A model generated the notes under the pieces. The model ran no database searches. It was not told the origin of the DNA and saw nothing but the letters and a program-made list of their open reading frames with translations. A stretch of DNA of 64,000 nt, from IMG/VR virus record IMGVR_UViG_3300021560_000013, positions 1 to 64,000 of that record. One strand, written 5' to 3'. A program made the translations under genes and the position numbers. How positions within the stretch are numbered: position 1 is the stretch's first letter; each line of letters opens with the position of its first letter. Source of the DNA: a virus. This document shows, piece after piece, positions 4,445 to 29,433 of this stretch.

Positions 4445-4828
4445 GTGGGCTACTGGGACCAGGTCGCCGTCCACGAGGCGCGAGGGCACTCGCGCGGGGT
4501 CTCGATGCTTGCCGCGCGCTACGTGCTGGACGAGCGCCGCGATCCGTCCCACTTCCCGTGGGACGAGCTTCTGCACCCGCGCACGCGCACCGGCGAGTTC
4601 GAGTTCAAGGGCTCGACCGAGGGGGACATTCCCGCCATGACCGCCAAGCAGCTGCACAAGATGCTGAAGAAGGCCGGGTTCTCGCGCGTGGGCCAGAAGG
4701 GCTCGCATGCGATCTTCAAGCATCCAGCTGGCGGGCGGCTCGTGGTCGTGCCGACGCACTCGGGCTCGATCCCGCGCGGGACGCTGCGGCACATCATCGC
4801 CACAGCCCAGACGCCAGCCCTTGCGTAA
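4445..4828 (+). CDS. hicA: HicA-family mRNA interferase domain with an N-terminal WDELLHPRxxxGEF leader; no HicB partner nearby
   Basis: MTAKQLHKMLKKAGFSRVGQKGSHAIFKHP...VVVPTH...IPRGTLRHII is the HicA signature. Confidence 0.8.
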   Translation: MGYWDQVAVHEARGHSRGVSMLAARYVLDERRDPSHFPWDELLHPRTRTGEFEFKGSTEGDIPAMTAKQLHKMLKKAGFSRVGQKGSHAIFKHPAGGRLVVVPTHSGSIPRGTLRHIIATAQTPALA

Positions 4829-4849
4829 GCGCACGATGTGTGCTATCTT
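4827..4849 (+). promoter_or_regulatory. Cassette-head element 3: palindrome + -10 (TATCTT), with no leader or RBS following
   Basis: AAGCGCAC-GAT-GTGTGCTA overlapping the hicA stop; followed by non-coding structured sequence. Confidence 0.85.
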
Positions 4850-4854
4850 GTAGG

Positions 4855-5347
4855 TGCGGTCCTGAGGGGCCGTGGCCCCGGAGTGGCTCTTCTCCGGAGC
4901 GGAGATCGAAGCGAGCGCCCGATCCGCAGGGCTGGTGCCGAGATCCCGGAGGACGCGGGTTTGATTCCCGCGCGGGGTAGAGACTTGAGGCTATTGGGAC
5001 GCCTCTCTAGGCCGGTGATCGCAGTAGGGTCGCGGACCGGCCCCAGACTTCGGGACCGCTAGTCCCTGGGCGCACGGCAGTGCGTAACCTCCCGACGGGG
5101 AGAGATCCTGGGCGCGAGAGCGAAATGAGCGGACCGAACTCCCGCCAGCAACCAAGACCGAGCGCCAACTCGTGAGGGGTCAGCGAAGGAGAAGCAGTTG
5201 GCAGCCCTTACTGCTGACCGCGCTGGCGGGGGAAACTTCGGCCAGGCGTGCCGCCCTTGGGGGCGCGTCCAGGGCTGGGGCGCGAGGCACGCCCGGCCTT
5301 GCAACAGGGTAGGCGAGTGCCTACCGCCGCCGGTAAAAACCTGGCGC
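4855..5347 (+). ncRNA. Candidate large structured ncRNA (~490 nt), class unknown
   Basis: Own promoter, no credible ORF. Many nested helices: 4856-4867/5048-5059, 5139-5149/5222-5232, 5178-5185/5212-5219, 5240-5252/5286-5298, 5308-5314/5319-5325. T-loop-like arm at 4955-4971. Confidence 0.65.
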
Positions 5348-5406
5348 TAGCGCGCATCGTGCGCTATGCTCTAGGTGGGGCCGAGAGAGCCCAACGACCG
5401 AGGAGA
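5348..5406 (+). promoter_or_regulatory. Cassette-head element 4
   Basis: TAGCGCGC-ATC-GTGCGCTA + TATGCT; hairpin GGGCCGAGAGAGCCC; CGACCGAGGAGA at 5395-5406. Confidence 0.85.
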
Positions 5407-5410
5407 CCTG

Positions 5411-5602
5411 ATGGAACGAGCCTTCTACGACCTGAGACCTGACGTGCCGTACGAGCCCGGCGAGATCGCCACGCTCCAGCACGAGGGCCAGATCGACCGC
5501 GAGCGCCAGGCCGTCGAGCGCCACTACCGCAACGGCAACGAGCCCGCTCTCAGGCGGGCGATCGCCCGCTGGCACGCACGAGAGGAGAGGCCCGAGCGAT
5601 GA
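5411..5602 (+). CDS. Hypothetical protein
   Basis: ATG follows the leader. Confidence 0.7.
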   Translation: MERAFYDLRPDVPYEPGEIATLQHEGQIDRERQAVERHYRNGNEPALRRAIARWHAREERPER

Positions 5603-5928
5603 CCGAGGAGTTCCGCAAGAAGTTCGACCCGTCGCAGTGGCGGGTCCTGCACCCGCAGCAGTTCGTGGACAAGCGCATGCAGTTGCGCCGCCCCGAGCGC
5701 GGCGGGCTCGTTCGCTACGGCGTGCGCGCCTACAGGGGCGCGATCGTCCGCAAGGGCGACGACGGCAAGCCGCAGCACGCCACCTGCAACCACGCTCACA
5801 GCAAGCCGGGCGCAGCGCGCAAGTGCGCTGAGCAGGAGGCTCGCAAACGCAATCGTGCGCTGGCGCGCGGCGTCCCTGACGGCGTGCCCGGCGGCTACTA
5901 CGGACAGGCGAAGGAGGTGACCGAATGA
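5599..5928 (+). CDS. Hypothetical protein (CxHxH...C motif)
   Basis: ATGA coupling. Confidence 0.7.
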   Translation: MTEEFRKKFDPSQWRVLHPQQFVDKRMQLRRPERGGLVRYGVRAYRGAIVRKGDDGKPQHATCNHAHSKPGAARKCAEQEARKRNRALARGVPDGVPGGYYGQAKEVTE

Positions 5929-6125
5929 CCGGACCCTACGAGGCAATCACGCAGTACGCGCTGAACACGCCGTTCCACAAGGTGATCGACCAGCGCTACC
6001 CCAACGCTCGCGCGAGCAGCTACGCGACGCGCGAGCAGGCCGAGATCGCCGCGATGCGGCTGAACGGCAAGTGGCTGATCGCTGAGGCCGACCGCCAGGA
6101 GCGGTTGGTGGCGTACGCCAGCTAG
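5925..6125 (+). CDS. Hypothetical protein
   Basis: ATGA coupling; its TAG stop begins the palindrome at 6123. Confidence 0.7.
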   Translation: MTGPYEAITQYALNTPFHKVIDQRYPNARASSYATREQAEIAAMRLNGKWLIAEADRQERLVAYAS

Positions 6126-6174
6126 CACACGCCGTGTGCTAGGATCATTCTAGAATCAACCCGACCGAAGGAGA
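6123..6174 (+). promoter_or_regulatory. Cassette-head element 5
   Basis: Perfect arms TAGCACAC-GCC-GTGTGCTA + TAGGAT; leader variant CCCGACCGAAGGAGA at 6160-6174. Confidence 0.85.
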
Positions 6175-6179
6175 TGAAG

Positions 6180-7043
6180 ATGCAACTGGGATTCGGCATG
6201 AGCCGAGCGGTCCCGGAGGACGTGACCACTGCCTGGGGCGCGCGACTGATCGCCCCGGCGGACATCCTGTGGGACCGCCAGGATCTCGTCGCTGAGAACG
6301 ACGAGGCCAAGCAGGAACTGATCGCGTGGCTCAACGGCGAGCCCGAGGGCACCGGCGCGATCGCGAAGGCGCGCGACTGGCTGCGGGAGAACTACCGTGG
6401 CATGCGCCAGGACTGGGACGACGAGCACGTTCTCTACGAGGACGCCGACGGGACCATCATGGGCTCGACCAACGCGAGCTACGGCTACGTCTACGTCGCG
6501 GGCTGGCTGAAGCCTGACCGTCCGGAGCCGCTGACCGACGAGGGGCGCGAAGTGCTGCGCGACATCCGGCGCATGACGCAGCCGGGGCGCTACCACGACG
6601 CGCTGACCGTGGATCGCTACGAGGCGGTTCGCGCGGCGATCCCGGCTGAGCGCTGGCACACGAAGTACGGCTGGGCTGAGGAGGACGCCGCGAAGATGGG
6701 CGGCACCGGCCACGAGGTTCGCCTGTACGCCGTCTACGCCGACGGCGAGCGGCGCGAGATCCAGCCGAACCAGCGCTCGGGCGACTTCGAGTTCGGCTAC
6801 CACGGCAGCGGGCCGCACGCGGTTGCTGAGGCGATCGTCAACGACCGGCTCGGCGTCGAGAACGACTCGGCGGACGACGACACGTACGTGCCACCGGCGC
6901 GGGCGTTCGACTTCGTGACCGAGGTGACGGAGCCCGCCGGGCGGCGCGACGACGGCCACATGGAGTACGAGACCCGGACGGTGCTCGCCGCCGACGTGGA
7001 CCGTTGCATCGAGGCGGCGCGCGAGAAGGCCGAGGCGTCGTGA
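6180..7043 (+). CDS. Two-domain hypothetical protein; C-terminal DUF6166-like motif
   Basis: FEFGYHGSGPHAVAEAI resembles the FEWGYxGSGP motif; start is 6174 or 6180. Confidence 0.65.
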   Translation: MQLGFGMSRAVPEDVTTAWGARLIAPADILWDRQDLVAENDEAKQELIAWLNGEPEGTGAIAKARDWLRENYRGMRQDWDDEHVLYEDADGTIMGSTNASYGYVYVAGWLKPDRPEPLTDEGREVLRDIRRMTQPGRYHDALTVDRYEAVRAAIPAERWHTKYGWAEEDAAKMGGTGHEVRLYAVYADGERREIQPNQRSGDFEFGYHGSGPHAVAEAIVNDRLGVENDSADDDTYVPPARAFDFVTEVTEPAGRRDDGHMEYETRTVLAADVDRCIEAAREKAEAS

Positions 7044-7426
7044 GCAACAACCTCTACCTGGTCTCGCACTACGACGAGCGGCGCGGGACCAACTGGGCGG
7101 GCGTGGACGAGGACCGGATCCTCCGGGAGACGAAGGTCAACGCGTACGACCGCTTCGGCCCGCGCGAGTGGAACGACTGGTTCCGGGAGCACGCGCCGTG
7201 GCTGCTGCCGGTGCTCGTGATCGACCACACCGACAACGACCGGGTGGTGGACATCCTGCGCCGCTACAGCGAGAAGGACCCGTTCGCGGACGACGAGAAC
7301 CGGATCATCGCGCGCTGGCGCGAGCAGATGGTCCCGTACCCGTACGGCTCGAAGGCGATGGAGTGGGAGCACCCTCCGGTGATGGCGATCGGCCAGGACG
7401 ATGTCGCAGGCTCGCTCCGCGCCTGA
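7040..7426 (+). CDS. Hypothetical protein
   Basis: GTGA coupling. Confidence 0.7.
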   Translation: MSNNLYLVSHYDERRGTNWAGVDEDRILRETKVNAYDRFGPREWNDWFREHAPWLLPVLVIDHTDNDRVVDILRRYSEKDPFADDENRIIARWREQMVPYPYGSKAMEWEHPPVMAIGQDDVAGSLRA

Positions 7427-7682
7427 GATCACCGCGCACTACCGGGCCGCGAACATCTACGCGATCGGCAACTGGGCCGTCGCGGAGATCAAGCGGCTCG
7501 GCGCTGACGCCGAGGGCAACGTGCTCGCGAGCGAGGAACTGTGCGACCTGGCGGACTGGTGCTGGGCCTGGATCGAGAACGACCCGAAGGACAACGGCGG
7601 CGACGCCAGCGTCCGGCGCGGCATGCGCCCGTACTGGCCCCGGATCTACCGCGCCTACCTGGACTTGCGTGGTAGCGCATGA
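7401..7682 (+). CDS. Hypothetical protein
   Basis: ORF track; stop lies inside the next palindrome. Confidence 0.65.
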   Translation: MSQARSAPEITAHYRAANIYAIGNWAVAEIKRLGADAEGNVLASEELCDLADWCWAWIENDPKDNGGDASVRRGMRPYWPRIYRAYLDLRGSA

Positions 7683-7730
7683 CAGGCGCTACACTTCCCG
7701 GCGGTTGCAGGCACAGTCCGACCGAGGAGG
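7673..7730 (+). promoter_or_regulatory. Cassette-head element 6
   Basis: TAGCGCAT-GAC-AGGCGCTA + TACACT; CCGACCGAGGAGG at 7718-7730. Confidence 0.8.
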
Positions 7731-7735
7731 ACAGG

Positions 7736-8647
7736 ATGGGTCGCCGTACGAACGGCTACAAGCTTGAGCTTGGTATCGAGCGCATCACGCCGCTGATGGC
7801 GACGGAGATGCTGCTCGCCAACACGATCAACCGCAGCATCCGGCCCAGACGCGTCAGCCAGTACGCCCGCGACATGAAGGCGGGCAACTGGGTGCCGGTG
7901 GGCGAGCCGATCGCGATCTCCGACAAGGGCGACCTGCTGAACGGCCAGCACCGGCTGCACGCGGTGATCGAGGCGGACGTGGACGTGGACATCCCCGTGG
8001 CGCGCGGCGTCCCGGCGCAGCTGCAGGACTCGATGGACCGGGGGCTCAAGCGCACGTTCGGAGACGTGCTCAAGCTGCACTACGACGAGGTGAACGTCAC
8101 GATGCTCGCGGCGGCGGTCAAGCAGGTTCACCAGTACCGGGCGACCGGGATCATGGGCCGCACCGGCGGGCATCACCCGGCCACGAGCGCGACGAACGCC
8201 GAGTTGGTCTCGACCTACGAGGCCGAGCGCAACCTGCGCGAGTCGGTCACCGTCGTGCATCGTGTACGCAACGGCGGGCAGTGGTTCGCGCCGGGCCTGC
8301 TGATGTCGCTGCACTACCTGTTCAGCGAGGCCGACCCTGCTGAGGCCGACCCGTTCTTCGAGGCGTTCGCGACCGGCGAGGACCAGCGGCGCGGCTCCGC
8401 GATCCTGGCGCTGCGCAAGCTCGGCACGCGGCGTCCGATGGACTTCACCTCGCAGGCGCAGGCGGCGATCATCATCAAGGCGTTCAACTTCTGGCGAGCG
8501 GGCCGCGCGATCAACACCGGCAACCTGCGCTGGCGCGCCGGTGGATCCTCGCCCGAGCAGTTCCCGAAGATCCTCAGCCCGGACGAGATCGCTGACGGCC
8601 AGGTCGAGGTGGGCATCGAGGAAGTGGAGGAGCCGGTGGCAGTCTGA
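7736..8647 (+). CDS. ParB/Srx N-terminal-like domain protein
   Basis: NTINRSI...YARDM...PIAI...LLNGQHRLHAV motif. Confidence 0.7.
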   Translation: MGRRTNGYKLELGIERITPLMATEMLLANTINRSIRPRRVSQYARDMKAGNWVPVGEPIAISDKGDLLNGQHRLHAVIEADVDVDIPVARGVPAQLQDSMDRGLKRTFGDVLKLHYDEVNVTMLAAAVKQVHQYRATGIMGRTGGHHPATSATNAELVSTYEAERNLRESVTVVHRVRNGGQWFAPGLLMSLHYLFSEADPAEADPFFEAFATGEDQRRGSAILALRKLGTRRPMDFTSQAQAAIIIKAFNFWRAGRAINTGNLRWRAGGSSPEQFPKILSPDEIADGQVEVGIEEVEEPVAV

Positions 8648-8812
8648 GGGACGAACGCGACGCTGGTACGGAAGCCGAACCGCTGAGGCGACTACCTCAC
8701 CCGGCAAGTCCTCGGCTCAGTAGAGCACTACGGGCCAGCGTCGCGTTGGTCTCTCGGTCGGGACCAAAGGCGTATAGGCCGTTTGCGGGGAGACCCGTAA
8801 ACGGCCATACGC
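8646..8812 (+). other. Structured intergenic element: long stem, partial anti-leader sequence and GAGA-loop hairpin
   Basis: AACGCGACGCTGG 8654-8666 pairs with CCAGCGTCGCGTT 8735-8747; CTCTCGGTCGGG at 8751-8762; hairpin at 8770-8812. Confidence 0.55.
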
Positions 8813-8819
8813 TTCGAGA

Positions 8820-11702
8820 GTGTCCGTCACCGCACCTCCGTTCGCCCCGGCTCCCTCCCCGTTCCAGCAGGCCCCACCGCCGGGCGTTGCGGCCCCGCAG
8901 CAGCAGCCAGGGCAGGCCCCGCCGACCGGCGGGCGACCCTGGAACGCGCAGCTGCACCCGCGTGGCCGGGGTGGGAAGTGGATCGTCGCGCCGGGCGCTG
9001 GAACGGGCGCTGGCGGGCCTGATCAGACGACCATCCAGCTGCAGCAGCGACTGCAGCAGCTGGGCTACCAGATCCCGGCGGACGGCAAGATGGGGCCGCG
9101 CACACAGGCCGCTGTCAAGGCGTTCCAGGAGAAGTATGGGCTGAGCACCACCGGCGGCGTGGACGCCGCGACGATGGAGGTGATGCAGAACCCGCCGGAC
9201 CAGTCGCTCGCGCAGATCCAGGCCGCTAAGAAGGCCGCTGCCGCTGCGACCAGGGCAGCCAAGGGAACGTCCAAGAAGGTCAAGCGAGGCTCCCAGAAGG
9301 GCGCAGGTGCGCCCACGGGGGCCGCTGGCGCGCTCAAGGGCACGAACACGAACATCCAGGGGCCGGGGCATCTCGGGTCCGCCGATCTTCAGGCCGGGCG
9401 GGGCATGCAGTCCGGCCAGGGCGACCCCGCCGTGAAGAACCTCCAGATCGCGCTGAGCGCGGCGGGGATCAAGGTCAATGCCGACGGGCGCTTCGGCCCA
9501 CAGACGGAGGCAGCTGTGCGACGACTCCAGCAGCAACACGGGCTGACCGTGGACGGCATCGTCGGCCCCGAGACGAAGGGCCTGCTCGTCGGGCTGGAGA
9601 CCGGCAAGCAGACGGCGAAGGCTGCCGCCAAGGCCAAGACGACCACGACCAAGAAGAAGAAGGACCAGCCCGCCGTGCTCCGCACCCGGCAGCCGACTCC
9701 CCGGCACGGCAGCCGGACCGCCGGGAGCCGCATGAAGCTGACGCCGCCCAAGCCGAAGGCCGCGAAGCTCAAGTACTCGGCGTCCGGCCTGCCCGACCCG
9801 GATCTCGAAGAGACGACGAACGCGTACGGCTACGGCGGCGTGCGGTCACTCGCGATCAAGGACTACCGCTCGGAGGGCGAGCCGCTGGTCGATCAGGATC
9901 TCTGGACGCGCTTCCAGGCGCTCGCGGATCCGCCGGACGAGACGATCTCCGACTTCCGCTCCGAGGGCGACACGCCGTCCGCGCCGGGCGACGAGACGAT
10001 CAAGGACTACCGCTCCGAGTTGACGGCGGCGCTCACCGAAGCGATCGCAGCGCGCAAGGCGGCGCAGGGCGGTCGGGCGTTCGCGCGAGCCCGAGCCCGC
10101 GAGCAGCTGCTGCGCTCCAAGCTCCTCGAAGCCGGGGTGTACGAGGAGGCGAAGCACGCAAGGGGTAGAGGTGGCCGGTGGATCGAGATGCTGAACAAGC
10201 TCAAGAGTCTGCCGGTCAACAAGCCCCAGGAGATCCACGGCGTCCCGGCGATGCGGCTCTCGACCGGCCACTACGCCGCAGCTGTCCAGGGCACGATGGT
10301 TCACGACGCGAGCCCGGAGAAGATCGCGAAGGCGATCGACAAGCACGTCTCCCACAAGGAGGAGCTACAGGCCCACGGCGACAAGGCGATGGAGGGCCTG
10401 TCCACCGATGTCGCCCGGCACTTCACCCGCGAGCACGCGCTCGCCGGGGACGACGAGGGCTTCCCCGAGCGCCACGAGATGTGGCACCAGGTGTACGACA
10501 TGGACCCGAAGCGCTACGTCCGCGAAGTGTTCTCCCAGGAGATGACGCCCGAGCATCGCGCCGAGGCCGAGAAGATGCTCGCGGACGCCAAAACGCACGT
10601 CGGGCGCAAGCAGGCCGAGCCGTACTTCGACATGACCAAGCCGCACGAGTTGGTGCCGATCGAGAAGCTCCACCCGATCAAGCAGGACCCGTCCGAGCAC
10701 ATCGCGAAGGCGGCGCGCTACATGGACGAGGCGGCGCGCGGAGCCCGCTCGAAGCGCAAGCCGATCACCGGCATGCGCAACTCGGACGGCACCGTCACGA
10801 TCCTCGACGGCAAGGGCACGCTCCAGGCGTCGCGCGATCGCGGCCTAACGCACCTGCCGGTCGAGATCACTGACCGACCCGAATCAGTCGAGCTACACAA
10901 CGGCGAGAAGGTCAAGGTCCCGCAGTCGGACGCTCAGGGCGACCAGATCCGCCGCGACGCGCTGAAGTACAACTCGGACTACCCCGAGTCGCACGCGGGG
11001 ATCTTGAAGGGCCAGCCAGCGGTCCACGTCGCGATCAGCCCGAGCGGGCCGCACGGTTCGAGCACCAGGGGCTGGCGCGCGTCGATCCGCCCGGTCGTGA
11101 TCATGCCGGACGGCGGGCACGCCGCCGCCGGTGAGCCGACGGTCAAGCCGCTGCGCCGGTTCGACGGGCGGCGCTCAGGGATCGAGCACGCGCAGCGCGG
11201 CAAGAAGTACCTGGGGCTGAAGGACTCGCAGGTGCCGATCCACTTCCACGACACCGAGACCCGCAAGACCGTGGTGGACGAGCCGGGCAAGCGCGTGAGT
11301 ACGCGCCGCCGGGCAACGCTCGGCCAGGCCGAGGGCGAGAAGGCGGCGGCGACCCGAGCGGAGATCATGCGCAAGTCGCCCGGCGCTCAGGCCGAGCTTG
11401 CGCGCCACCAGGAGATTGCCCGAGGGGCGACGCAGGGGGACGCGAACGCGATCCCGAAGGCTACGAACCGTAAGGGTGCCCCGAAGACCGGTGGGCGCGG
11501 TGGACTGAGCACCAACTACTACAAGAAGGAAGACGGCAGCGTGATCGCGTTCGACGCTCCGAACACGGTCATCGCTCACCGGATGGCACGTAACCACACG
11601 CCGACTGGCAAGCTGCAACACCTGGGCTGGGCGTGGCGCTCGTCTAGCGGTGAGAAGCGCCTGAACGGTGGAGGTCAGATGGTGCCCGAGAAACCCCTGT
11701 AG
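8820..11702 (+). CDS. 960-aa mosaic head-region protein: two peptidoglycan-binding domains, HPRGRGG motifs and a ParB-like domain
   Basis: LQQRLQQLGY...DGKMGPRTQAAVKAFQ and LQIAL...DGRFGPQTEAAVRRLQ...DGIVGPET (PG_binding_1); PITG...TILDGKGT...GLTHLPV. Confidence 0.8.
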   Translation: MSVTAPPFAPAPSPFQQAPPPGVAAPQQQPGQAPPTGGRPWNAQLHPRGRGGKWIVAPGAGTGAGGPDQTTIQLQQRLQQLGYQIPADGKMGPRTQAAVKAFQEKYGLSTTGGVDAATMEVMQNPPDQSLAQIQAAKKAAAAATRAAKGTSKKVKRGSQKGAGAPTGAAGALKGTNTNIQGPGHLGSADLQAGRGMQSGQGDPAVKNLQIALSAAGIKVNADGRFGPQTEAAVRRLQQQHGLTVDGIVGPETKGLLVGLETGKQTAKAAAKAKTTTTKKKKDQPAVLRTRQPTPRHGSRTAGSRMKLTPPKPKAAKLKYSASGLPDPDLEETTNAYGYGGVRSLAIKDYRSEGEPLVDQDLWTRFQALADPPDETISDFRSEGDTPSAPGDETIKDYRSELTAALTEAIAARKAAQGGRAFARARAREQLLRSKLLEAGVYEEAKHARGRGGRWIEMLNKLKSLPVNKPQEIHGVPAMRLSTGHYAAAVQGTMVHDASPEKIAKAIDKHVSHKEELQAHGDKAMEGLSTDVARHFTREHALAGDDEGFPERHEMWHQVYDMDPKRYVREVFSQEMTPEHRAEAEKMLADAKTHVGRKQAEPYFDMTKPHELVPIEKLHPIKQDPSEHIAKAARYMDEAARGARSKRKPITGMRNSDGTVTILDGKGTLQASRDRGLTHLPVEITDRPESVELHNGEKVKVPQSDAQGDQIRRDALKYNSDYPESHAGILKGQPAVHVAISPSGPHGSSTRGWRASIRPVVIMPDGGHAAAGEPTVKPLRRFDGRRSGIEHAQRGKKYLGLKDSQVPIHFHDTETRKTVVDEPGKRVSTRRRATLGQAEGEKAAATRAEIMRKSPGAQAELARHQEIARGATQGDANAIPKATNRKGAPKTGGRGGLSTNYYKKEDGSVIAFDAPNTVIAHRMARNHTPTGKLQHLGWAWRSSSGEKRLNGGGQMVPEKPL

Positions 11703-11712
11703 GAGAGAAATC

Positions 11713-12051
11713 ATGACCCTGCTCGAAGACCGACTCCAGGAGGCCGTCGAGGCGCGCAAGACGGCTCCGAACTCGACCGCGTTCGTGCGTGCCCGTGCGC
11801 GCGAGACCGTGTTGCGCCGTCAGCTGGAGGAGCGCGAGTTCACCGCCCAGAAGCGCGAGAAGCTCGCGGCCAAGGGTCACGCGATGCCGCACGGCGGGTT
11901 CCCGATCGAGAACGCCGAGGATCTCTCCAACGCCGTCAAGGCGCTCGGGCGCGCGAAGAACCCCGACGCGGCGAAGGCGCACATCATCAAGCGCGCGAAG
12001 GCGCTCGGGCTCACCTCGAAGCTGCCGGACGGCTGGAACGTGGACAGCTGA
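11713..12051 (+). CDS. Head-associated small protein (RARARE module + DUF6582-like domain)
   Basis: RBS AGGAG; REKLAAKGHAMPHGGFPIEN...HIIKRAKALG resembles domains fused to actinophage head proteins. Confidence 0.7.
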   Translation: MTLLEDRLQEAVEARKTAPNSTAFVRARARETVLRRQLEEREFTAQKREKLAAKGHAMPHGGFPIENAEDLSNAVKALGRAKNPDAAKAHIIKRAKALGLTSKLPDGWNVDS

Positions 12052-12686
12052 TGTCGGCGCTCGCGGAGGGCTACCTGGAGTCCCAGCATCCGCGTGGACG
12101 CCGGGGCGAGTGGATCCCGTCGCCGGGCGCGAAGGTAAAGCTGCGCCAGCTGGGCTCGGGCGGCGGCGTGCTGAAGGTCATCAAGGCGGCGGCGGGCCTG
12201 GCGAACGTCGAGGACCGTCGCGGCCAGAAGCACACCTACGCGATCTCCGACCTGCAGCCGCTGCTGGGCTCACGCCTGGCGCTGGCCGAGGCGATCGACG
12301 CCCGGACGGACGCGAGGACATCGCTGGAGTTCGTTCACGCGCGAGCGCGCGAGCAGGTGCTCCGCGAGTGGCTCTACTGCGAGGAGCACGCCGAGGAGTG
12401 GCTGCAGGAGAGCGAGAAGACAGCTGGCTACTCGGTGACACACGCTCCGCTCGGGAAGCCCGGCGGTCCGGGCCTGTGGAAGCACAAGGGTCTGCAGCTG
12501 CCCGCCTATATCCAGAACGTGGCGCGCGGGATTATGAAGACGGGCAAGACGATGAGCGCGGCCATCGCCTCAGCCATCGCCGTCGTCAAGCGCTGGGCAG
12601 CTGGCGGCGGTCACGTCAGCCCCGAGGTGAAGGCCGCTGCTGCCAAGGCCGTGGCCGAATGGGAGAAGCTCAAGGCCACGCACTGA
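12051..12686 (+). CDS. Head-associated protein (HPRG motif, RARE module, C-terminal LPAYIQNVA...AVAEWE domain)
   Basis: TGATG coupling; shares motifs with neighbouring proteins. Confidence 0.7.
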   Translation: MSALAEGYLESQHPRGRRGEWIPSPGAKVKLRQLGSGGGVLKVIKAAAGLANVEDRRGQKHTYAISDLQPLLGSRLALAEAIDARTDARTSLEFVHARAREQVLREWLYCEEHAEEWLQESEKTAGYSVTHAPLGKPGGPGLWKHKGLQLPAYIQNVARGIMKTGKTMSAAIASAIAVVKRWAAGGGHVSPEVKAAAAKAVAEWEKLKATH

Positions 12687-13196: not shown

Positions 13197-15014
13197 GTGA
13201 CCACACTGAAGCATGCTTACGAGCGCCAGCGCGCTGCTGATTTCGCTCGCGAGCAGGCTCACGAGGTCTACGAGCGGATCTACTGGGACCTGGAGCCACG
13301 CGCTCGGGGCACGGTGGACATCCACGAGCACCCTGACTACAAGGCCGCTGTCGCTGAGGCCGACCGGCTCACCGACGAGGTGGCCGGTCTTCGCGCGCAG
13401 GCTGGCGGGAAGGTGTTCCGGATCGTAGACACGAAGCTGGAAGAGCTTGCCACGCGGATCGAGAAGCTGAACAAGAAGGCGACCAAGCTCGGGACCGACC
13501 CGATCGTGCTGACCGTCTCCGACGAGCACGAGCAGGAAGTGACCCGCGAGCTTCCGCCCGGCTATGACCCGGCCACGACCCTGGACGACTGGGGCAAGGC
13601 TGGCGTCGAGCGCGTCACCGACTACACCTACATCACGGTCAACGGCGAGACGCCGATGGTGGCTGGGAAGTGGGTGTTCGTGGCAACGCTCGACCACGAG
13701 GCGGACGAGGGCGCTGACGAGAGCGTAGGCATCCGCCGGGCTCCGATCGGAGCGTTCACGGTGGCCCGGATCGGCCAGGAGGCGGCGGATGCCGTCGAGA
13801 AGGCCGACCTGACCGACTACCGTCACGCTCGCGCCGACTGCGATCACTGCGGCTGGAACCGCCGCCGGAAGCAGACCTACGTGCTCTACGAGACGGCCAC
13901 TGGCGAGCTTCGCCAGATTGGCTCGACCTGCTTGCGCGACTACACCGGGGCCAACAACCCCGAGCGCGTCGCGGCCTGGGCCGAGTGGCTTGAGGGCCTG
14001 TACGGCGACCTGGGCGGCGGCGAGTACGACGAGGACGCCGGTGGTGGCGGCGGTCGCATCGCGATGCGCCAGCGGGACTTCCTCGCGAACGTCGTCGCGG
14101 TGATGCACGAGAACGGGTGGGTGCCGCGCTGGTCCCGCTCGGACTACGGCGACAGCGAGCGCAACTACAACGCCACCGCCGACGTGGCCGAGTCGAACTA
14201 CTTCGAGCGCAAGCCGAAGTTCAAGGTCCCCGTCACCGACGAGGATTACGCCGAGGCCGACGCCGCGCTTGAGTGGGTTCGCGAGGATCTGGCCGAGCGT
14301 GACGACCTGGACGAGTTCCAGCACAACCTCGTGACCTACACCCGCTCCGACTACGTGCCGAAGAAGGGCTCCGGATTCGTGGCCTACACGATCATGGCCC
14401 GGCGGCGCGAGATCGAGGGGTTCATCAAGAAGGAGCGCGCCGAGAAGGTCAAGGCGACCAGCGAGTGGTTCGGTGAGGTGAAGTCCCGAGTGAAGGGCCT
14501 GACGTTCACTGTGACTTTCACCCGCGAGTTCGAGTCCCGCTTCGGTGTCACCACGCTGACGAAGGGGATCACTCCGGAGGGGAACTTGATCACCTGGTTC
14601 GGAGCCGGTGGCCTTGAGCAGGGCAAGACCTACACGATGGCCGCGACGATCAAGTCGCACGACCTGGACAAGTACGCGGACAACGCGAAGACCACGGTTA
14701 TCACCCGCCCCGCGAAGATCGAGGAGATCGACACCGAGAACGGCGAGGAGGCGGGCGAGATGGAGGTGACCGCTACCGCCGCCGAGCGCGAAACCGCGCG
14801 CCTGAAGCGGCTCGACCCGAAGGACGTGGACGAGCACCTGGACAGCGCGATCGCCTCCTACAACGACCTGACCAACACGATGGAGCGAGGCGTCAGCGGG
14901 TCCTGGGAGCGCGAGTACTACGCCGACCAGGAGCAGCGGCTGAAGCGGCTGATCCACCGGTTGGAGAACGACCAGCGAGCGCTGGCGGCGATGACAACAC
15001 GAGAGGAGCAGTGA
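13197..15014 (+). CDS. 605-aa protein with Zn-finger (CDHC...GSTC) and probable C-terminal OB-fold
   Basis: Motifs seen in the translation; the fold is inferred. Confidence 0.7.
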   Translation: MTTLKHAYERQRAADFAREQAHEVYERIYWDLEPRARGTVDIHEHPDYKAAVAEADRLTDEVAGLRAQAGGKVFRIVDTKLEELATRIEKLNKKATKLGTDPIVLTVSDEHEQEVTRELPPGYDPATTLDDWGKAGVERVTDYTYITVNGETPMVAGKWVFVATLDHEADEGADESVGIRRAPIGAFTVARIGQEAADAVEKADLTDYRHARADCDHCGWNRRRKQTYVLYETATGELRQIGSTCLRDYTGANNPERVAAWAEWLEGLYGDLGGGEYDEDAGGGGGRIAMRQRDFLANVVAVMHENGWVPRWSRSDYGDSERNYNATADVAESNYFERKPKFKVPVTDEDYAEADAALEWVREDLAERDDLDEFQHNLVTYTRSDYVPKKGSGFVAYTIMARRREIEGFIKKERAEKVKATSEWFGEVKSRVKGLTFTVTFTREFESRFGVTTLTKGITPEGNLITWFGAGGLEQGKTYTMAATIKSHDLDKYADNAKTTVITRPAKIEEIDTENGEEAGEMEVTATAAERETARLKRLDPKDVDEHLDSAIASYNDLTNTMERGVSGSWEREYYADQEQRLKRLIHRLENDQRALAAMTTREEQ

Positions 15015-21767: not shown

Positions 21768-23261
21768 ATGAGCGTCACTGCGCCCCCAGAAGCTCCAGCC
21801 GACGCGCTCCAGCTGCGAGAGGCGATGTACGCGCTCTCGCGCGAGAGCGTCGAGTTCCCAGAAGACCTGCAAGAGGCCCGCGTCCAGCGACTCCTGGACA
21901 GCGGGCTCGACCTGGAGGAAGCGACCGCCCGCGAGGAGCAGGAACGCTCCAAGCTGGTGCCGGTCCACATCCTGCGCCCGTGCCTCGGCAAGGGCCGTGG
22001 CCGTCACATCTACGAGGCGGACATGCTGCAGGAGAACGCCCACAAGTTTGCGGGCTGGCGGCAGTTCATCGACCACCTCTCACCGGAAGCCCGGCGCGCT
22101 GCGAAGGGCCTGCCCCGCTCGATCCGAGATCTCGGCGGGCGGATCGTGGAGAGCTACTGGGACGGCAACGTCCCGGCGGACGACAAGAAGAAGTACGGCC
22201 AGGGAGCGGTCGTCGGCTGGTCGTTGCCGACGCCGTTCATCCGCGAACTGGCCGAGAACGATCCCGAGCTTGTCGAGTGCTCGATCTCCGCGAACGCCAC
22301 CGGCGTGCAGCCGCGCATGGTGGACGGCAAGCGGGCCTGGCTGGTCGAGGGCATCGAGGACCGTGGAAGCGTTGACTGGGTGACCGAGGCGGGCGCTGGT
22401 GGCCGCGTCGTCGCGTTGATGGAGTCTGCCTACGAGGAGGACGGGATGGGACTGCTGGAGTCGATGACCGACGAGGAGTTCATCGCCTACGTCGAAGAAG
22501 TCCGGCCCCACCTGCTCACCGAGCAAGGCGACGGTGACGCGGAGGACGAGGCGGATCAGGGCGACGACGAGCTTGAGGAGATGGTGGCGCGGATGATGAA
22601 GCGCAACCCCAAGCTCACCCGCGCCCAGGCCGAGGCGATGGCGAAGAAGGCGCTCGCGAAGTCGAGCCAGGAAGCGGCGGAAGCCGACGACACAGAGGAG
22701 ACAGACATGGGTGCGATCACCCCAGAGGCGCTCCAGGAAGCTCTCCAGTCCGAGGACTTCCAGAGCGTGCTCGGCCCGATCATTGACGACCGGGTCAAGA
22801 CTCTCGTTGAGTCGGCGGTGGCCGACGAGCGTGAGTTGATCCGCGCGGAGGCGCGAGCCGACGCCGACCGGCAGCTGGAACTGCGCGACATGCGCGACGC
22901 GGCTCACCGGCAGATCACCGAGGCCAAGCTCCCGGACGCGTTCGCGAACCGGGCCAAGTCTCAGTTCCAGCTGACGGAGACGGGGCCGACGCCGGGGCTC
23001 GACGTGGTGGACGACGTTGACGACGACGGCAACGTCACCAAGAAGGCGTCCGAGAAGCTGAGCGAGGCGGTCACCGCCGCCATCCAGGATCAGCGCGAGC
23101 TTCTCGCGGCGGCGAACCCGACAGCGGTTCGCGGCCAGGGACCTGGCACTCCCGCCAAGCGCGGCGAGGGTGACGACGAGCCGAAGAAGGGCGAGGGAAC
23201 GCTCTACGGCGCGCTCCTCCAGGAAGCAGGGGTCGATCCCTCCACGGCGTGGGACGACTGA
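21768..23261 (+). CDS. Prohead protease-scaffold fusion
   Basis: FIDH...RSIRDLGG...SISA...SVDWVTEAGAGG protease-like core, acidic coiled-coil tail, position before the capsid gene. Confidence 0.8.
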   Translation: MSVTAPPEAPADALQLREAMYALSRESVEFPEDLQEARVQRLLDSGLDLEEATAREEQERSKLVPVHILRPCLGKGRGRHIYEADMLQENAHKFAGWRQFIDHLSPEARRAAKGLPRSIRDLGGRIVESYWDGNVPADDKKKYGQGAVVGWSLPTPFIRELAENDPELVECSISANATGVQPRMVDGKRAWLVEGIEDRGSVDWVTEAGAGGRVVALMESAYEEDGMGLLESMTDEEFIAYVEEVRPHLLTEQGDGDAEDEADQGDDELEEMVARMMKRNPKLTRAQAEAMAKKALAKSSQEAAEADDTEETDMGAITPEALQEALQSEDFQSVLGPIIDDRVKTLVESAVADERELIRAEARADADRQLELRDMRDAAHRQITEAKLPDAFANRAKSQFQLTETGPTPGLDVVDDVDDDGNVTKKASEKLSEAVTAAIQDQRELLAAANPTAVRGQGPGTPAKRGEGDDEPKKGEGTLYGALLQEAGVDPSTAWDD

Positions 23262-23291: not shown

Positions 23292-23675
23292 ATGCCGTAT
23301 AACCGCCCAGGCCCAGGCGTCTACGTCACCAACGGCGGCACCGCGATCGCGCACGGCTCGCCGCAGGTGAACGCGGGCTTTGTCGGCGTCGCCGTCAAGC
23401 AGGCCCCTCGCCAGTGGCAGGACAGCTACGCGATCCAGGGGACGATCGACGCCAGCGAGGCGTACTTCCTGATCACGAAGGGCGTGGTCCAGGTCCCGAA
23501 CACCGGGATCACGGCCAACGTGAAGGGCGACCCGATCTACATCACGCCCGCCAGCGTGCTGACCGCCACCTCGGCGGGCAACTCGAAGTTCGGGCGGGTC
23601 GTGGAGGTGGCCGGTGCCCGAGGCACGCCGCCGAACAAGGTCAGGATCGACCTGGACCTGAAGGACAGCTTCTAA
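23292..23675 (+). CDS. DUF2190-like capsid cement/decoration protein
   Basis: GFVGVA...GVVQV...GDPIY...FGRVVE; lies between protease and capsid genes. Confidence 0.7.
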   Translation: MPYNRPGPGVYVTNGGTAIAHGSPQVNAGFVGVAVKQAPRQWQDSYAIQGTIDASEAYFLITKGVVQVPNTGITANVKGDPIYITPASVLTATSAGNSKFGRVVEVAGARGTPPNKVRIDLDLKDSF

Positions 23676-23785: not shown

Positions 23786-24850
23786 ATGCACGGCAACCCC
23801 TACGGTGCCTTCGGCAGGCCGATCCGCCTGCTTGAGGCGTACCGCGAGTGGCGCGACGAGCGGATGCTGGAGGAGGCCGACTCCAAGGCCGACTTCGCAT
23901 CCTTCCTGTACGGACCCGTTCGCCAGTCGATGTGGCACGGCTACAGCCGCGCCCAGGCGCAGTACCAGCGCTACACCCGCGAGGAGTCCGCGCCGGACTT
24001 CCGCGATCGGCGTCTGCGTGGCCTGAACGGCCTGCTCGGGATCGGCTACGTGGGCGACCACGGGCACTACCCCGGACTGGCCCGGACGGACCGCCCGCCC
24101 GCCCACCTCTCGGTGGACACCTACGGCGGCATGTACTCGATCACCCGCCAGGCGATCATCAACGACGACTCGAACGAACTGCTGAACCGCAACCCGGCGG
24201 ACATGGGCTACGCGGCTGGCGTGTTCATCCTGCAGACGGTCATCGCGATGATCCAGAACCCGCCGAACGCGGGCGACGGCAACGCGTTCTACTCGGTCGC
24301 CGGGACCGGGCGCGGCAACCAGGTCGTCTCGCCGCTGTCGGAGGACAGCCTGGTGGATGCGATCGGGTTCATGGAGTCCCTGCTGGACGATGACGGTCGG
24401 CAGATCGTGGTCACGCCGCAGCTGCTGGTCGTCAAGAACGCCCGGATGCAGATGATCGCCCAGCGGATCCTGAACTCGACCCAGACCGGGACCAACGTGA
24501 CGTGGACCGGCGCTGCCGGTGTCGGCTCGCAGGTCATGGACAAGGGCACGATCAACCCGCTCGCCGGGGTCCTCCCCGCCGACGGCGTGATCCGCGACCC
24601 GTGGTTCTCGGACGCCAACGACTGGTACCTGTTCGCGGACCCGAACGACGTGCCAGCGTTCGCCGTGGGGTTCCTGAACGGGCAGTCCGAGCCGCAGGTG
24701 ATGCTGAAGGATCCGCTCGTGCGGATGGCGCTCGGGGCGGGGACGGACCCGTACTCGTTCGAGCTTGACGCCGTCGAGTTCAAGGTCCGCAGTGACTTCG
24801 GCGTCGCGCCGGTCGATCCTCGTGGGGCGTACCGCTCGATCGTGCCTTGA
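23786..24850 (+). CDS. Major capsid protein (Mu gpT-like)
   Basis: TYGGMYSITRQAIINDD, DGNAFYS, WYLFADP, VGFLNGQSEP, FKVRSDFG. Confidence 0.9.
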   Translation: MHGNPYGAFGRPIRLLEAYREWRDERMLEEADSKADFASFLYGPVRQSMWHGYSRAQAQYQRYTREESAPDFRDRRLRGLNGLLGIGYVGDHGHYPGLARTDRPPAHLSVDTYGGMYSITRQAIINDDSNELLNRNPADMGYAAGVFILQTVIAMIQNPPNAGDGNAFYSVAGTGRGNQVVSPLSEDSLVDAIGFMESLLDDDGRQIVVTPQLLVVKNARMQMIAQRILNSTQTGTNVTWTGAAGVGSQVMDKGTINPLAGVLPADGVIRDPWFSDANDWYLFADPNDVPAFAVGFLNGQSEPQVMLKDPLVRMALGAGTDPYSFELDAVEFKVRSDFGVAPVDPRGAYRSIVP

Positions 24851-27945: not shown

Positions 27946-29433
27946 ATGCCGGGGATCTTCTCGAAGTCGGCGCGGCCCCCACGTCCTGGGGCGTACTTCA
28001 ACTGGGCCGCGACGCCGGTCACGACCGTTCTGCCGTCGATCGGCTCGGTCGTGCTGCTGGCGATCGTTCACGACTGGGGTCCGGACGAGGTGATCGTCCC
28101 GACCGTCTCGCTCGCGGACTTCCAGGCGAAGTTCGGCCCGACGCAGAGCGCGGGCTACAAGGCGGTCATGCAGTGCTTCGAGGGTGAGGCGTACGCCGGT
28201 CGAGGCGGCGCGGGCACCGTGCTCGTGTACCGCATGACGGGCTCGGCAGCGGTGAAGGCGACGGTCTCGGTCCAGAACACCACGCCCGCCGCGTGCCTCA
28301 CGCTGACCGCGAAGTACCAGGGCAGCTACGGCAACAGCCTGGGCTTCCGCAACATCGCTGACCCGGTAGTCGGAGCCAACAACATCCTGCAGATCACGCT
28401 GGGCGGGACGGTCGTGGAGTCCTACTCGTACGTGAAGACCGACATCACCGGGCTCGCGGCGCAGATCAACGCGCAGTCGCAGTGGGTGACCGGCGCGATG
28501 CTGATCACCGGCGTGGCAGTCGCGGCGGCGAGCACGAGCACGCCGCCGACGGCGCTCGCCACCGGCAACGACGGCTCGACGCTCGTCGGCGCGGACTGGT
28601 CGCTGATGACCACGAACTGCTCCTCGGCGCGCTTCTCGCTGTTCTCCCCCTACGACCTGACCGACTCGACCATCCTCCAGTCGATCCAGGTCTGGGTGGC
28701 GAACATGAACGTCAACGGCAAGCGGTTCATGGCCGTGGTCGGTGGCGCGCTGAACGAGACTGCGTCGGCGGCGGTCACGCGCTCGACGGCGCTCCAGACC
28801 GTGCAGTCCGGCGCGTCGATCTCGGGTGCCGAGGACTTCATCAACCTGGGCGTCGGCTCGGTGCAGGACTCCGCGCTCGGCGTGCTGTCCACCTCGCAGC
28901 TGGCTCCGAGGGTCGCCGGGATCCTGGCGGCGCGCGGCGAGTCGATGAGCCTGACGTTCGCCCGGCTGGCCGGGGTGACGCCGCTGATCCTGCCGGACGA
29001 CCCGTCAGTGCTGCAGTGCTTCAACGGCGGGGTGGTGTGCCTCGGCCAGGACTCCAACCCGGACGCGCCGGTGCGCGTCGAGAAGGGTCTGACGGCGTAT
29101 ATCGGCGGCGACACGACCAAGCCGTACCTGATCTACCGCAACCCCAAGTTCCTGCGGACGATGCAGGGCATCGAGTTGGACATCACCGACTGGGCGACGA
29201 ACAACGCGATCGGCCTGCTCCAGGTCAACGATGCGACCCGTGCGCTGGTCGTCGGCCACGCGCACGAGGTGATCCAGGCGCGTGCCGACCGGGGCGTGAT
29301 CCAGGACGGGTTCACCGTCGGCACCGACCCGAGCCCGCCGCCGTCCGACATGGACGAGTTCGTGGCGCTGCTCTACGGCATTGCCTTCGGGCGCTCCGTC
29401 GAGCAGGTCTTCAACACCGTCTTTATCTCTTGA
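27946..29433 (+). CDS. Tail sheath protein
   Basis: RPGAYFN, DWGP, LTAKYQGSYGNSL, RVAGILA, EQVFNTV. Confidence 0.9.
   Translation: MPGIFSKSARPPRPGAYFNWAATPVTTVLPSIGSVVLLAIVHDWGPDEVIVPTVSLADFQAKFGPTQSAGYKAVMQCFEGEAYAGRGGAGTVLVYRMTGSAAVKATVSVQNTTPAACLTLTAKYQGSYGNSLGFRNIADPVVGANNILQITLGGTVVESYSYVKTDITGLAAQINAQSQWVTGAMLITGVAVAAASTSTPPTALATGNDGSTLVGADWSLMTTNCSSARFSLFSPYDLTDSTILQSIQVWVANMNVNGKRFMAVVGGALNETASAAVTRSTALQTVQSGASISGAEDFINLGVGSVQDSALGVLSTSQLAPRVAGILAARGESMSLTFARLAGVTPLILPDDPSVLQCFNGGVVCLGQDSNPDAPVRVEKGLTAYIGGDTTKPYLIYRNPKFLRTMQGIELDITDWATNNAIGLLQVNDATRALVVGHAHEVIQARADRGVIQDGFTVGTDPSPPPSDMDEFVALLYGIAFGRSVEQVFNTVFIS

Follow-up and report, generated by a model that had tools for sequence, protein, structure and literature searches.

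The first 64,000 nucleotides of the record IMGVR_UViG_3300021560_000013, referred to here as the window, encode a set of otherwise dissimilar proteins near the head genes of an uncultured phage that share two short peptide motifs. The whole record is a single sequence of 110,271 bp (68% GC), classed as linear and 89% complete by the CheckV estimate. One motif is a leader of about 20 residues built around His-Pro-Arg, here called the HPR tag (motif 2), and the other is a helical hairpin, here called ARARE (motif 1). A first-pass annotation had described both as modular peptides that recruit cargo to the prohead, and all of the peptides that it quoted are present at the genes that it named.

Tagged proteins in the window and beside the portal gene

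The HPR tag was reported to occur four times in the window, and the pattern H[PA]R-x(2,3)-G-x-[WFY] matches exactly those four sites in all six frames. The rest of the 110-kb genome has four further in-frame copies, at genome positions 86272, 87640, 88537 and 90004, two in each of two large multidomain proteins beside the portal gene; one additional pattern match is off-frame and is a chance hit. The eight genome copies give the extended consensus L-x-E-[AGS]-x-[YWF]-x-E-x-L-HPR-[GD]-R-x-G-[KR]-W. The same codon is used in 57% of the codon pairs for identical residues between copies, so that codon usage differs and it is the peptide, rather than a DNA repeat, that is conserved, as expected of selection on the peptide. 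These motifs, their positions and their associations are direct observations.

The protein encoded at 4445 carries its tag in an N-terminal extension, followed by a HicA_toxin domain (PF07927, E 4.5e-17, residues 68-121). The same HPR-HicA architecture is found in three of 39 representative tag carriers from other genomes.

The 960-aa protein has one tag near its N-terminus and a second in its interior. The second tag follows an ARARE hairpin that ends in L-L-E-A, and orthologues keep this arrangement, with ARARE about 24 residues ahead of the tag. The last 500 residues have no assigned fold. A ParB-like domain had been ascribed to this protein, but it has no such match in Pfam, PHROGs or the PDB sequences, and the label finds an echo in one weak protein-atlas row (rank 20, score 0.79). 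The database gene call is shorter (870 aa, P0154), since it starts 90 codons later and omits 8820-9089. This later start would drop the first tag and truncate a peptidoglycan (PG)-binding domain, and therefore the GTG at 8820 looks like the better start.

The 112-aa protein begins with ARARE and continues into a DUF6582-like domain. A start at 11668 had been given for its open reading frame (ORF), but the ATG at 11713 is the most likely start, as in the orthologues, all of which begin with M-T-L-L-E-D-R-L. Its C-terminal region matches the tail of PHROG 80, annotated as head maturation protease (E 7e-4), and DUF6582 adjoins Peptidase_S78 in P0075, a protein from another phage.

The 211-aa protein carries a tag, a small barrel, ARARE and a C-terminal domain, here called domain X. 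In the AlphaFold2 (AF2) model, with a predicted local distance difference test score (pLDDT) of 81, a small beta barrel is followed by ARARE and then by a three-helix bundle, which is domain X. The barrel has only weak matches to Tudor, PWWP and SH3 folds. Domain X has 130 relatives, and the fold search with the 211-aa model also matched it, at 46% identity, within an unnamed viral protein of 1187 aa. Other phages have it joined to PG-binding domains or to prohead proteases of the HK97 type (Peptidase_S78), the latter in some cases together with DUF6582. In P0067, P0069, P0075 and P0119 it lies N-terminal to Peptidase_S78, in some of them with DUF6582 in between. Since domain X and DUF6582-like pieces are found in head-maturation proteins elsewhere, the small proteins of the block appear to be built from such pieces.

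The two large tagged proteins, of 996 and 1056 aa, lie outside the window. They follow the portal gene (genome 81268-83316; PHROG 10963, 1.7e-29) and a collagen-like gene. The collagen-repeat protein has 595 aa (genome 83466-85254, or 2467-4254 of locus L001; Pfam Collagen 3e-65) and thus lies between the portal gene and the first of the two large putative cargo proteins. The zincin region of this genome matches minor head proteins of cultured phages.

The block of 960-, 112- and 211-aa proteins lies upstream of the scaffold and capsid genes, and this position is kept in relatives. Synteny with the head genes holds across 22 related IMG/VR loci, in which the scaffold protein is 52-91% identical. 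Among 50,697 cultured-phage records, megablast and tblastn found no near relative, the only matches being to the PG-binding and zincin domains. Coordinates are collected in Table 1.

Table 1. Tagged proteins, their motifs and the head genes (window positions unless marked as genome or L001)
Feature	Position	Strand	Details
HicA-domain protein with tagged N-terminal extension	4445..4828	+	HPR tag (W..F) 4559-4600; Pfam HicA_toxin
960-aa multidomain protein	8820..11702	+	HPR tag 1 8940-8981; two PG_binding_1; ARARE 10029-10130, ending in L-L-E-A 10122-10133; HPR tag 2 10140-10181; C-terminal part
112-aa protein	11713..12051	+	N-terminal ARARE hairpin 11713-11832; L-E-E; DUF6582-like domain ~11842-12048
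211-aa protein	12051..12686	+	L-A-E-G 12060-12071; HPR tag 12072-12113; SH3/Tudor-like barrel; ARARE 12279-12374
211-aa protein, C-terminal side		+	L-Q-E-S 12402-12413; three-helix domain X 12414-12683
Candidate head-maturation protease (N-terminal half) fused to acidic C-terminal scaffold half, 497 aa	21768..23261	+	Directly upstream of the decoration and capsid genes
Head decoration protein	23292..23675	+	PHROG 122, 1.3e-7
Major capsid protein	23786..24850	+	Pfam Phage_capsid_4, 5.9e-37, from residue 34
996-aa protein	genome 85375-88365 (L001 4376-7366)		Two HExxH regions between tags; GNAT; two HPR tags
1056-aa protein	genome 88390-91560 (L001 7391-10561)		CCA/polyA polymerase; HD; DUF7178; two HPR tags

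Other genes of the window include a tail sheath gene (27946-29433) and a gene for a 605-aa protein (13197-15014) that stands directly after the tagged block in all relatives; it matches PHROG 2319, of unknown function (5.5e-66), and has no Pfam match. The first ORF (42-1034) weakly resembles RelA_SpoT, at an E-value of 0.0023 that does not pass the Pfam cut-off; it reaches the start of the contig and may continue from the opposite end of the genome.

The HPR tag in other genomes

The tag is widespread. A word-indexed database search with a profile of the eight genome copies returned 53 proteins with 109 copies, and an exhaustive profile search of 1.84 billion representatives returned 415 proteins at E<=1e-3, 74 of them at E<=1e-10. 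The broad consensus, from 445 copies, is [WFY]-[DE]-E-x-[LK]-H-P-R-[DG]-x-x-G-[RK]-[FW]. Many genes open directly with M-x-W-D-E-S-K-H-P-R-D, and Gly-rich linkers often follow the tag. The first tag is no more than 60 aa from the N-terminus in 73 of 185 carriers, and the last tag comes that close to the C-terminus in only two. Successive tags are a median of 275 aa apart (5-95% range 112-688 aa). Two giant carriers, of 5313 and 7334 aa, hold 16 and 17 tag stretches by HMMER and 16 each by regular expression; these proteins (P0193 and P0194) share one 409,570-bp NCBI contig, with the tag variant W-D-E-x-K-HPRGEHG[RK][WF]. Judged from these sequences, the HPR tag is an N-terminal prefix, about 20 residues long, of predicted effector modules that are either free-standing or part of polyproteins.

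The domains attached to the tag include PG-binding, GNAT, ART-PolyVal, CCA/polyA polymerase with HD, MuF, Zeta toxin, HicA, NUDIX, Acb1, topoisomerase IB and 2H. ART-PolyVal is bracketed by tags on both sides in two carriers, and the MuF domain (Phage_Mu_F) occurs in four of 39. These partners are the ones to be expected if the modules are injected effectors. One carrier has a Pfam LPD1 match, but LPD1 is a different motif from the tag.

The tag was also sought by scanning one genome per prokaryotic species for the back-translated motif W-D-E-x-x-H-P-R-x3-G, which gave 76 loci, all but about five of them with the motif in frame. They come from Firmicutes, Melainabacteria, Neisseria, Desulfovibrio, Bacteroidota, Planctomycetota, Actinomycetota, Spirochaetes and one archaeon. 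One tag locus labelled as E. coli had no match in complete E. coli genomes. A Pfam survey of 148 ORFs from 24 of these loci found 13 portal proteins, seven Phage_Mu_F (and two minor capsid 2), eight large terminases, six DUF2213, three capsid, five cement, five XM1 gp53 minor capsid, four LPD3 and four PBECR1 matches. The architectures include portal-tag-LPD3, portal-tag-PBECR1, portal-tag-LPD3-DUF2213, tag-LPD3-DUF2213, tag-glutamine deamidase toxin and tag-M23 peptidase. DUF2213 is annotated as a head maturation protease in many cultured phages. The first-pass annotation had counted a lack of association with head modules in other phages as one refutation of its idea; for the HPR tag such an association, with portal, MuF, terminase, DUF2213 and capsid genes, is found in many phyla.

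A different context is provided by RHS proteins. In Desulfovibrio and Nitratidesulfovibrio (loci L032, L043, L062, L067 and L078) the RHS/YD-shell match ends about 30-40 residues before the tag, which is immediately preceded by a D-P-x-N-R-x-D-x-S-G-L motif, in our reading the RHS DPxGL junction. After the tag come toxin domains of NlpC/P60 or pesticin type (L043 and L032).

ARARE, glutamate sites and the candidate head protease

ARARE occurs in the 8820, 11713 and 12051 proteins, as had been noted, and the three copies are related by pairwise BLASTP (E-values 2e-5 to 2e-8). Its distribution is narrow. A profile search found 25 proteins only, all from this phage lineage, in which ARARE is N-terminal (M-T-L-L-E-D-R-L-Q-E-A-V...) or internal and L-x-E always comes next. 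It is combined with the DUF6582-like domain, with or without domain X, occurs as ARARE-HPR tag-second ARARE-DUF6582-like, and stands before the tag inside large PG-binding proteins. That modular motifs join unrelated domains thus holds for both motifs; the wide association with head modules holds for the HPR tag, and ARARE is confined to this lineage. In the AF2 model of the 211-aa protein, ARARE forms two helices, the second of them long, joined by a short loop. Profile-profile comparison shows no relation between ARARE and the scaffold N-terminus. Because it is placed before a putative cut site, ARARE may be a removable pro-region.

The putative cut site is a short Glu motif. In close relatives, [LIVM]-x-E-[AGS] begins 9-12 residues ahead of the His at 59 of 98 internal tags. 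The density of the motif in the same proteins would predict 5.7, which makes the enrichment about 10-fold; in the broad set 127 of 423 tags have the motif upstream (20 expected). Where ARARE, DUF6582-like and domain X modules meet, the sequence is L-Q-E-S, L-E-E-A or L-Q-E-A. The 497-aa protein at 21768 has 13 [LIM]-x-E-[AGS] sites where 2.1 are expected (z 7.7), the highest score of any protein in the genome and a count reached in none of 300 shuffles, and the sites of its N-terminal half that fall within the alignment are conserved in relatives. Two such sites, L-L-E-A (23828-23839) and L-E-E-A (23867-23878), lie within the first 31 residues of the capsid protein. They are conserved in 20 related loci, even in L021 at 58% identity, and suggest a putative N-terminal propeptide of about 30 aa. 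This pattern fits predicted cutting after Glu by a head protease of the phage itself.

The 497-aa protein is the candidate for that protease. Its residues 1-245 have protein-atlas look-alikes in Peptidase_S77/S80 (score 0.95), and it matches PHROG 15531 'head maturation protease' (1.7e-4) and, in its C-terminal half, PHROG 172 'scaffolding' (5.8e-4). These matches point weakly to its N-terminal half as a head-maturation protease. The suggestion that L-x-E marks Glu-specific prohead protease sites therefore stands in part: the motif is enriched before tags, in the scaffold and at the capsid N-terminus, but the protease family is not confirmed.

A candidate system of virion-internal cargo

We lean, with modest confidence, towards the reading that this region encodes virion-internal cargo of the 'polyvalent' or portal/MuF-linked effector kind, organised like beads on a string from HPR tags, Glu sites and ARARE. 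The HPR tag would be a pan-bacterial leader at the N-terminal edge of every effector module. In this lineage the [LIM]-x-E-[AGS] directly before most internal tags would be the site at which the head-maturation protease of the phage cuts, after Glu, and ARARE would be a lineage-specific helix-loop-helix just ahead of such a site, removed like a pro-region. The cargo would enter the procapsid together with portal, MuF and scaffold, and the protease would then release modules that each retain an N-terminal HPR tag and exit with the DNA. Cleavage, packaging and ejection are what we infer here from sequence.

Several observations weigh against this. Phage_Mu_F (PF04233) has no hidden Markov model match in this genome, and a MuF assignment within the 996-aa protein rests on its gene position after the portal and on a P-P-V-H-x-G-C-G-C motif (H-x-x-C-x-C). 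About 40% of internal tags have no Glu site, and the P0002-type junction is L-E-E-R, without [AGS]. The L-x-E-A motif could partly reflect helical sequence rich in E, A and L, since shuffling controls for composition and not for periodicity. The protease fold is unconfirmed: the AF2 model has a pLDDT of 55, there is no PDB profile match and the wide VIA search gave Z<=4.2; nor did the genome searches find a Pfam match to S77, S80, S78, DUF2213 or Mu-I. Finally, the tag is also found after the RHS YD-shell, and therefore a capsid-specific role is not required.

The last point bears on the idea of the first-pass annotation that the HPR tag is itself an encapsidation or ejection address, docking cargo to the portal, MuF, scaffold or capsid interior. 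It is an attractive idea, since the tag opens many stand-alone proteins whose genes neighbour those for portal and MuF, is independent of the type of cargo, and is found on the DUF2213 head maturation protease, which must enter the procapsid. But one tag per module exceeds the need if cutting occurs inside the prohead, and the tag is retained in covalent portal and MuF fusions, where targeting is needless, as well as on RHS C-terminal toxins. Seven cultured phages whose head modules have MuF-metallopeptidase fusions or DUF2213 were inspected individually; none carries the tag there, and they gave no proteomics-backed example. The RHS copies, the portal fusions and these tag-less modules weaken a pure capsid address, which we consider doubtful, and the claim that either motif is a capsid-targeting signal is not upheld. 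The same points allow that the tag may act during passage or within the recipient cell, as a handle for refolding or for a universal host factor, or in threading unfolded effectors through a narrow channel. Such a role would suit a tag that heads the cargo of two kinds of container, phage capsids and RHS shells, that is conserved across phyla despite differing head proteins and that is often followed by Gly-rich linkers; yet the RHS cases may be toxin cassettes captured by recombination, and we regard this role as unlikely.

Two further explanations are less probable still. The tag could be the processing site itself, self-cleaving or recognised by zincin-type metallopeptidase domains, whose self-processing of polyvalent proteins was proposed by Iyer et al. 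2017 (PMC5512222). There is one tag per junction, and the 996-aa protein has two HExxH domains between its tags, but stand-alone proteins start with the tag and so offer nothing upstream to cut, and many carrier loci show no metallopeptidase; we consider this quite improbable. Alternatively, the motifs could be conserved recombination junctions for module swapping, like VENN in CdiA, with no function as peptides. The modules are indeed extensively shuffled, but synonymous codons vary between copies and the peptide is conserved across phyla from 30 to 68% GC, which leaves this explanation with very little credit.

The cargo reading can be compared with several known systems. T4 gp21 prohead protease cuts scaffold, capsid and internal proteins after L/I-x-E and removes the capsid-targeting sequence (CTS) of internal proteins and Alt. 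As in T4, short N-terminal peptides are found here on unrelated cargo, and a motif of the L/I-x-E type is shared by the cargo, the scaffold and the N-terminal region of the capsid protein, its putative propeptide. Unlike the T4 peptides, to which they have no sequence similarity, the HPR tags lie downstream of the predicted cut and would stay on the cargo, so that the T4-like removal of a targeting tag first suggested is not predicted for them; only ARARE would be removed. Nor is the candidate protease confirmed as a member of the S77 (gp21-like) family.

Polyvalent proteins, for which packaging and injection were predicted by Iyer, Burroughs, Anand, de Souza and Aravind (2017, PMC5512222), are fused to or lie beside MuF and portal genes. 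The tag carriers resemble them as large proteins with several effector domains (ART-PolyVal, GNAT, 2H, zincin metallopeptidase, LPD1/LPD3, PBECR1, PG-targeting). In this genome the 996- and 1056-aa proteins each combine at least two distinct effector or enzymatic domains in one polypeptide, the portal gene lies just upstream of them, and the window block is syntenic with scaffold and capsid, as expected of a packaging or late-gene context. The hallmark domains are found in tag carriers elsewhere, and here in the zincin region with its minor head protein matches. Unlike polyvalent proteins, small single-module proteins (HicA, 112-aa, 211-aa) also carry the elements. Neither an HPR leader nor a per-module Glu cut site is mentioned in Iyer et al. 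2017 (PMC5512222).

MuF polymorphic toxins likewise join a virion anchor domain to variable toxin domains, and in Neisseria prophages the tag stands between the portal domain and LPD3/DUF2213; this genome differs in having no N-terminal Phage_Mu_F match. A conserved pre-toxin motif of the HPR sequence is not described in Jamet et al. 2017 (PMC5576092) or Zhang et al. 2012 (PMC3482391). RHS DPxGL and CdiA VENN are also short conserved elements at the start of variable effectors, but the HPR tag has another sequence, is repeated up to 16-17 times per protein and occurs mainly in phage head modules. Searching about 8.4 million full texts with motif strings found no published description of the leader, although absence there is no proof. 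The HPR leader thus appears to be undescribed, whereas the polyvalent proteins that carry it were already known.

A broader proposal, which we make tentatively and hold to be well short of probable, is that the HPR leader is a universal portable mark for carriage in DNA-delivering containers (capsids, and perhaps also RHS shells or conjugative elements) and for release in the recipient cell, with a lineage-specific protease site placed upstream. Were this the case, injected effectors would be recognisable in any genome from the tag alone, which could also serve to load foreign proteins into capsids.

Apart from T4, P1, N4 and a handful of others, phages have, to our knowledge, yielded little information on which of their proteins are carried in the capsid and delivered into the host along with the DNA. 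A conserved leader of 20 residues would allow candidate injected effectors to be listed from sequence in any phage or prophage, and the partner domains of the tag include HicA, Zeta-toxin, ADP-ribosyltransferase and the anti-CBASS protein Acb1. That RHS toxins also bear the tag hints at a shared function in effectors that are encapsulated and delivered. Together with a lineage-specific protease site, the tag would explain how giant polyvalent proteins become separate enzymes.

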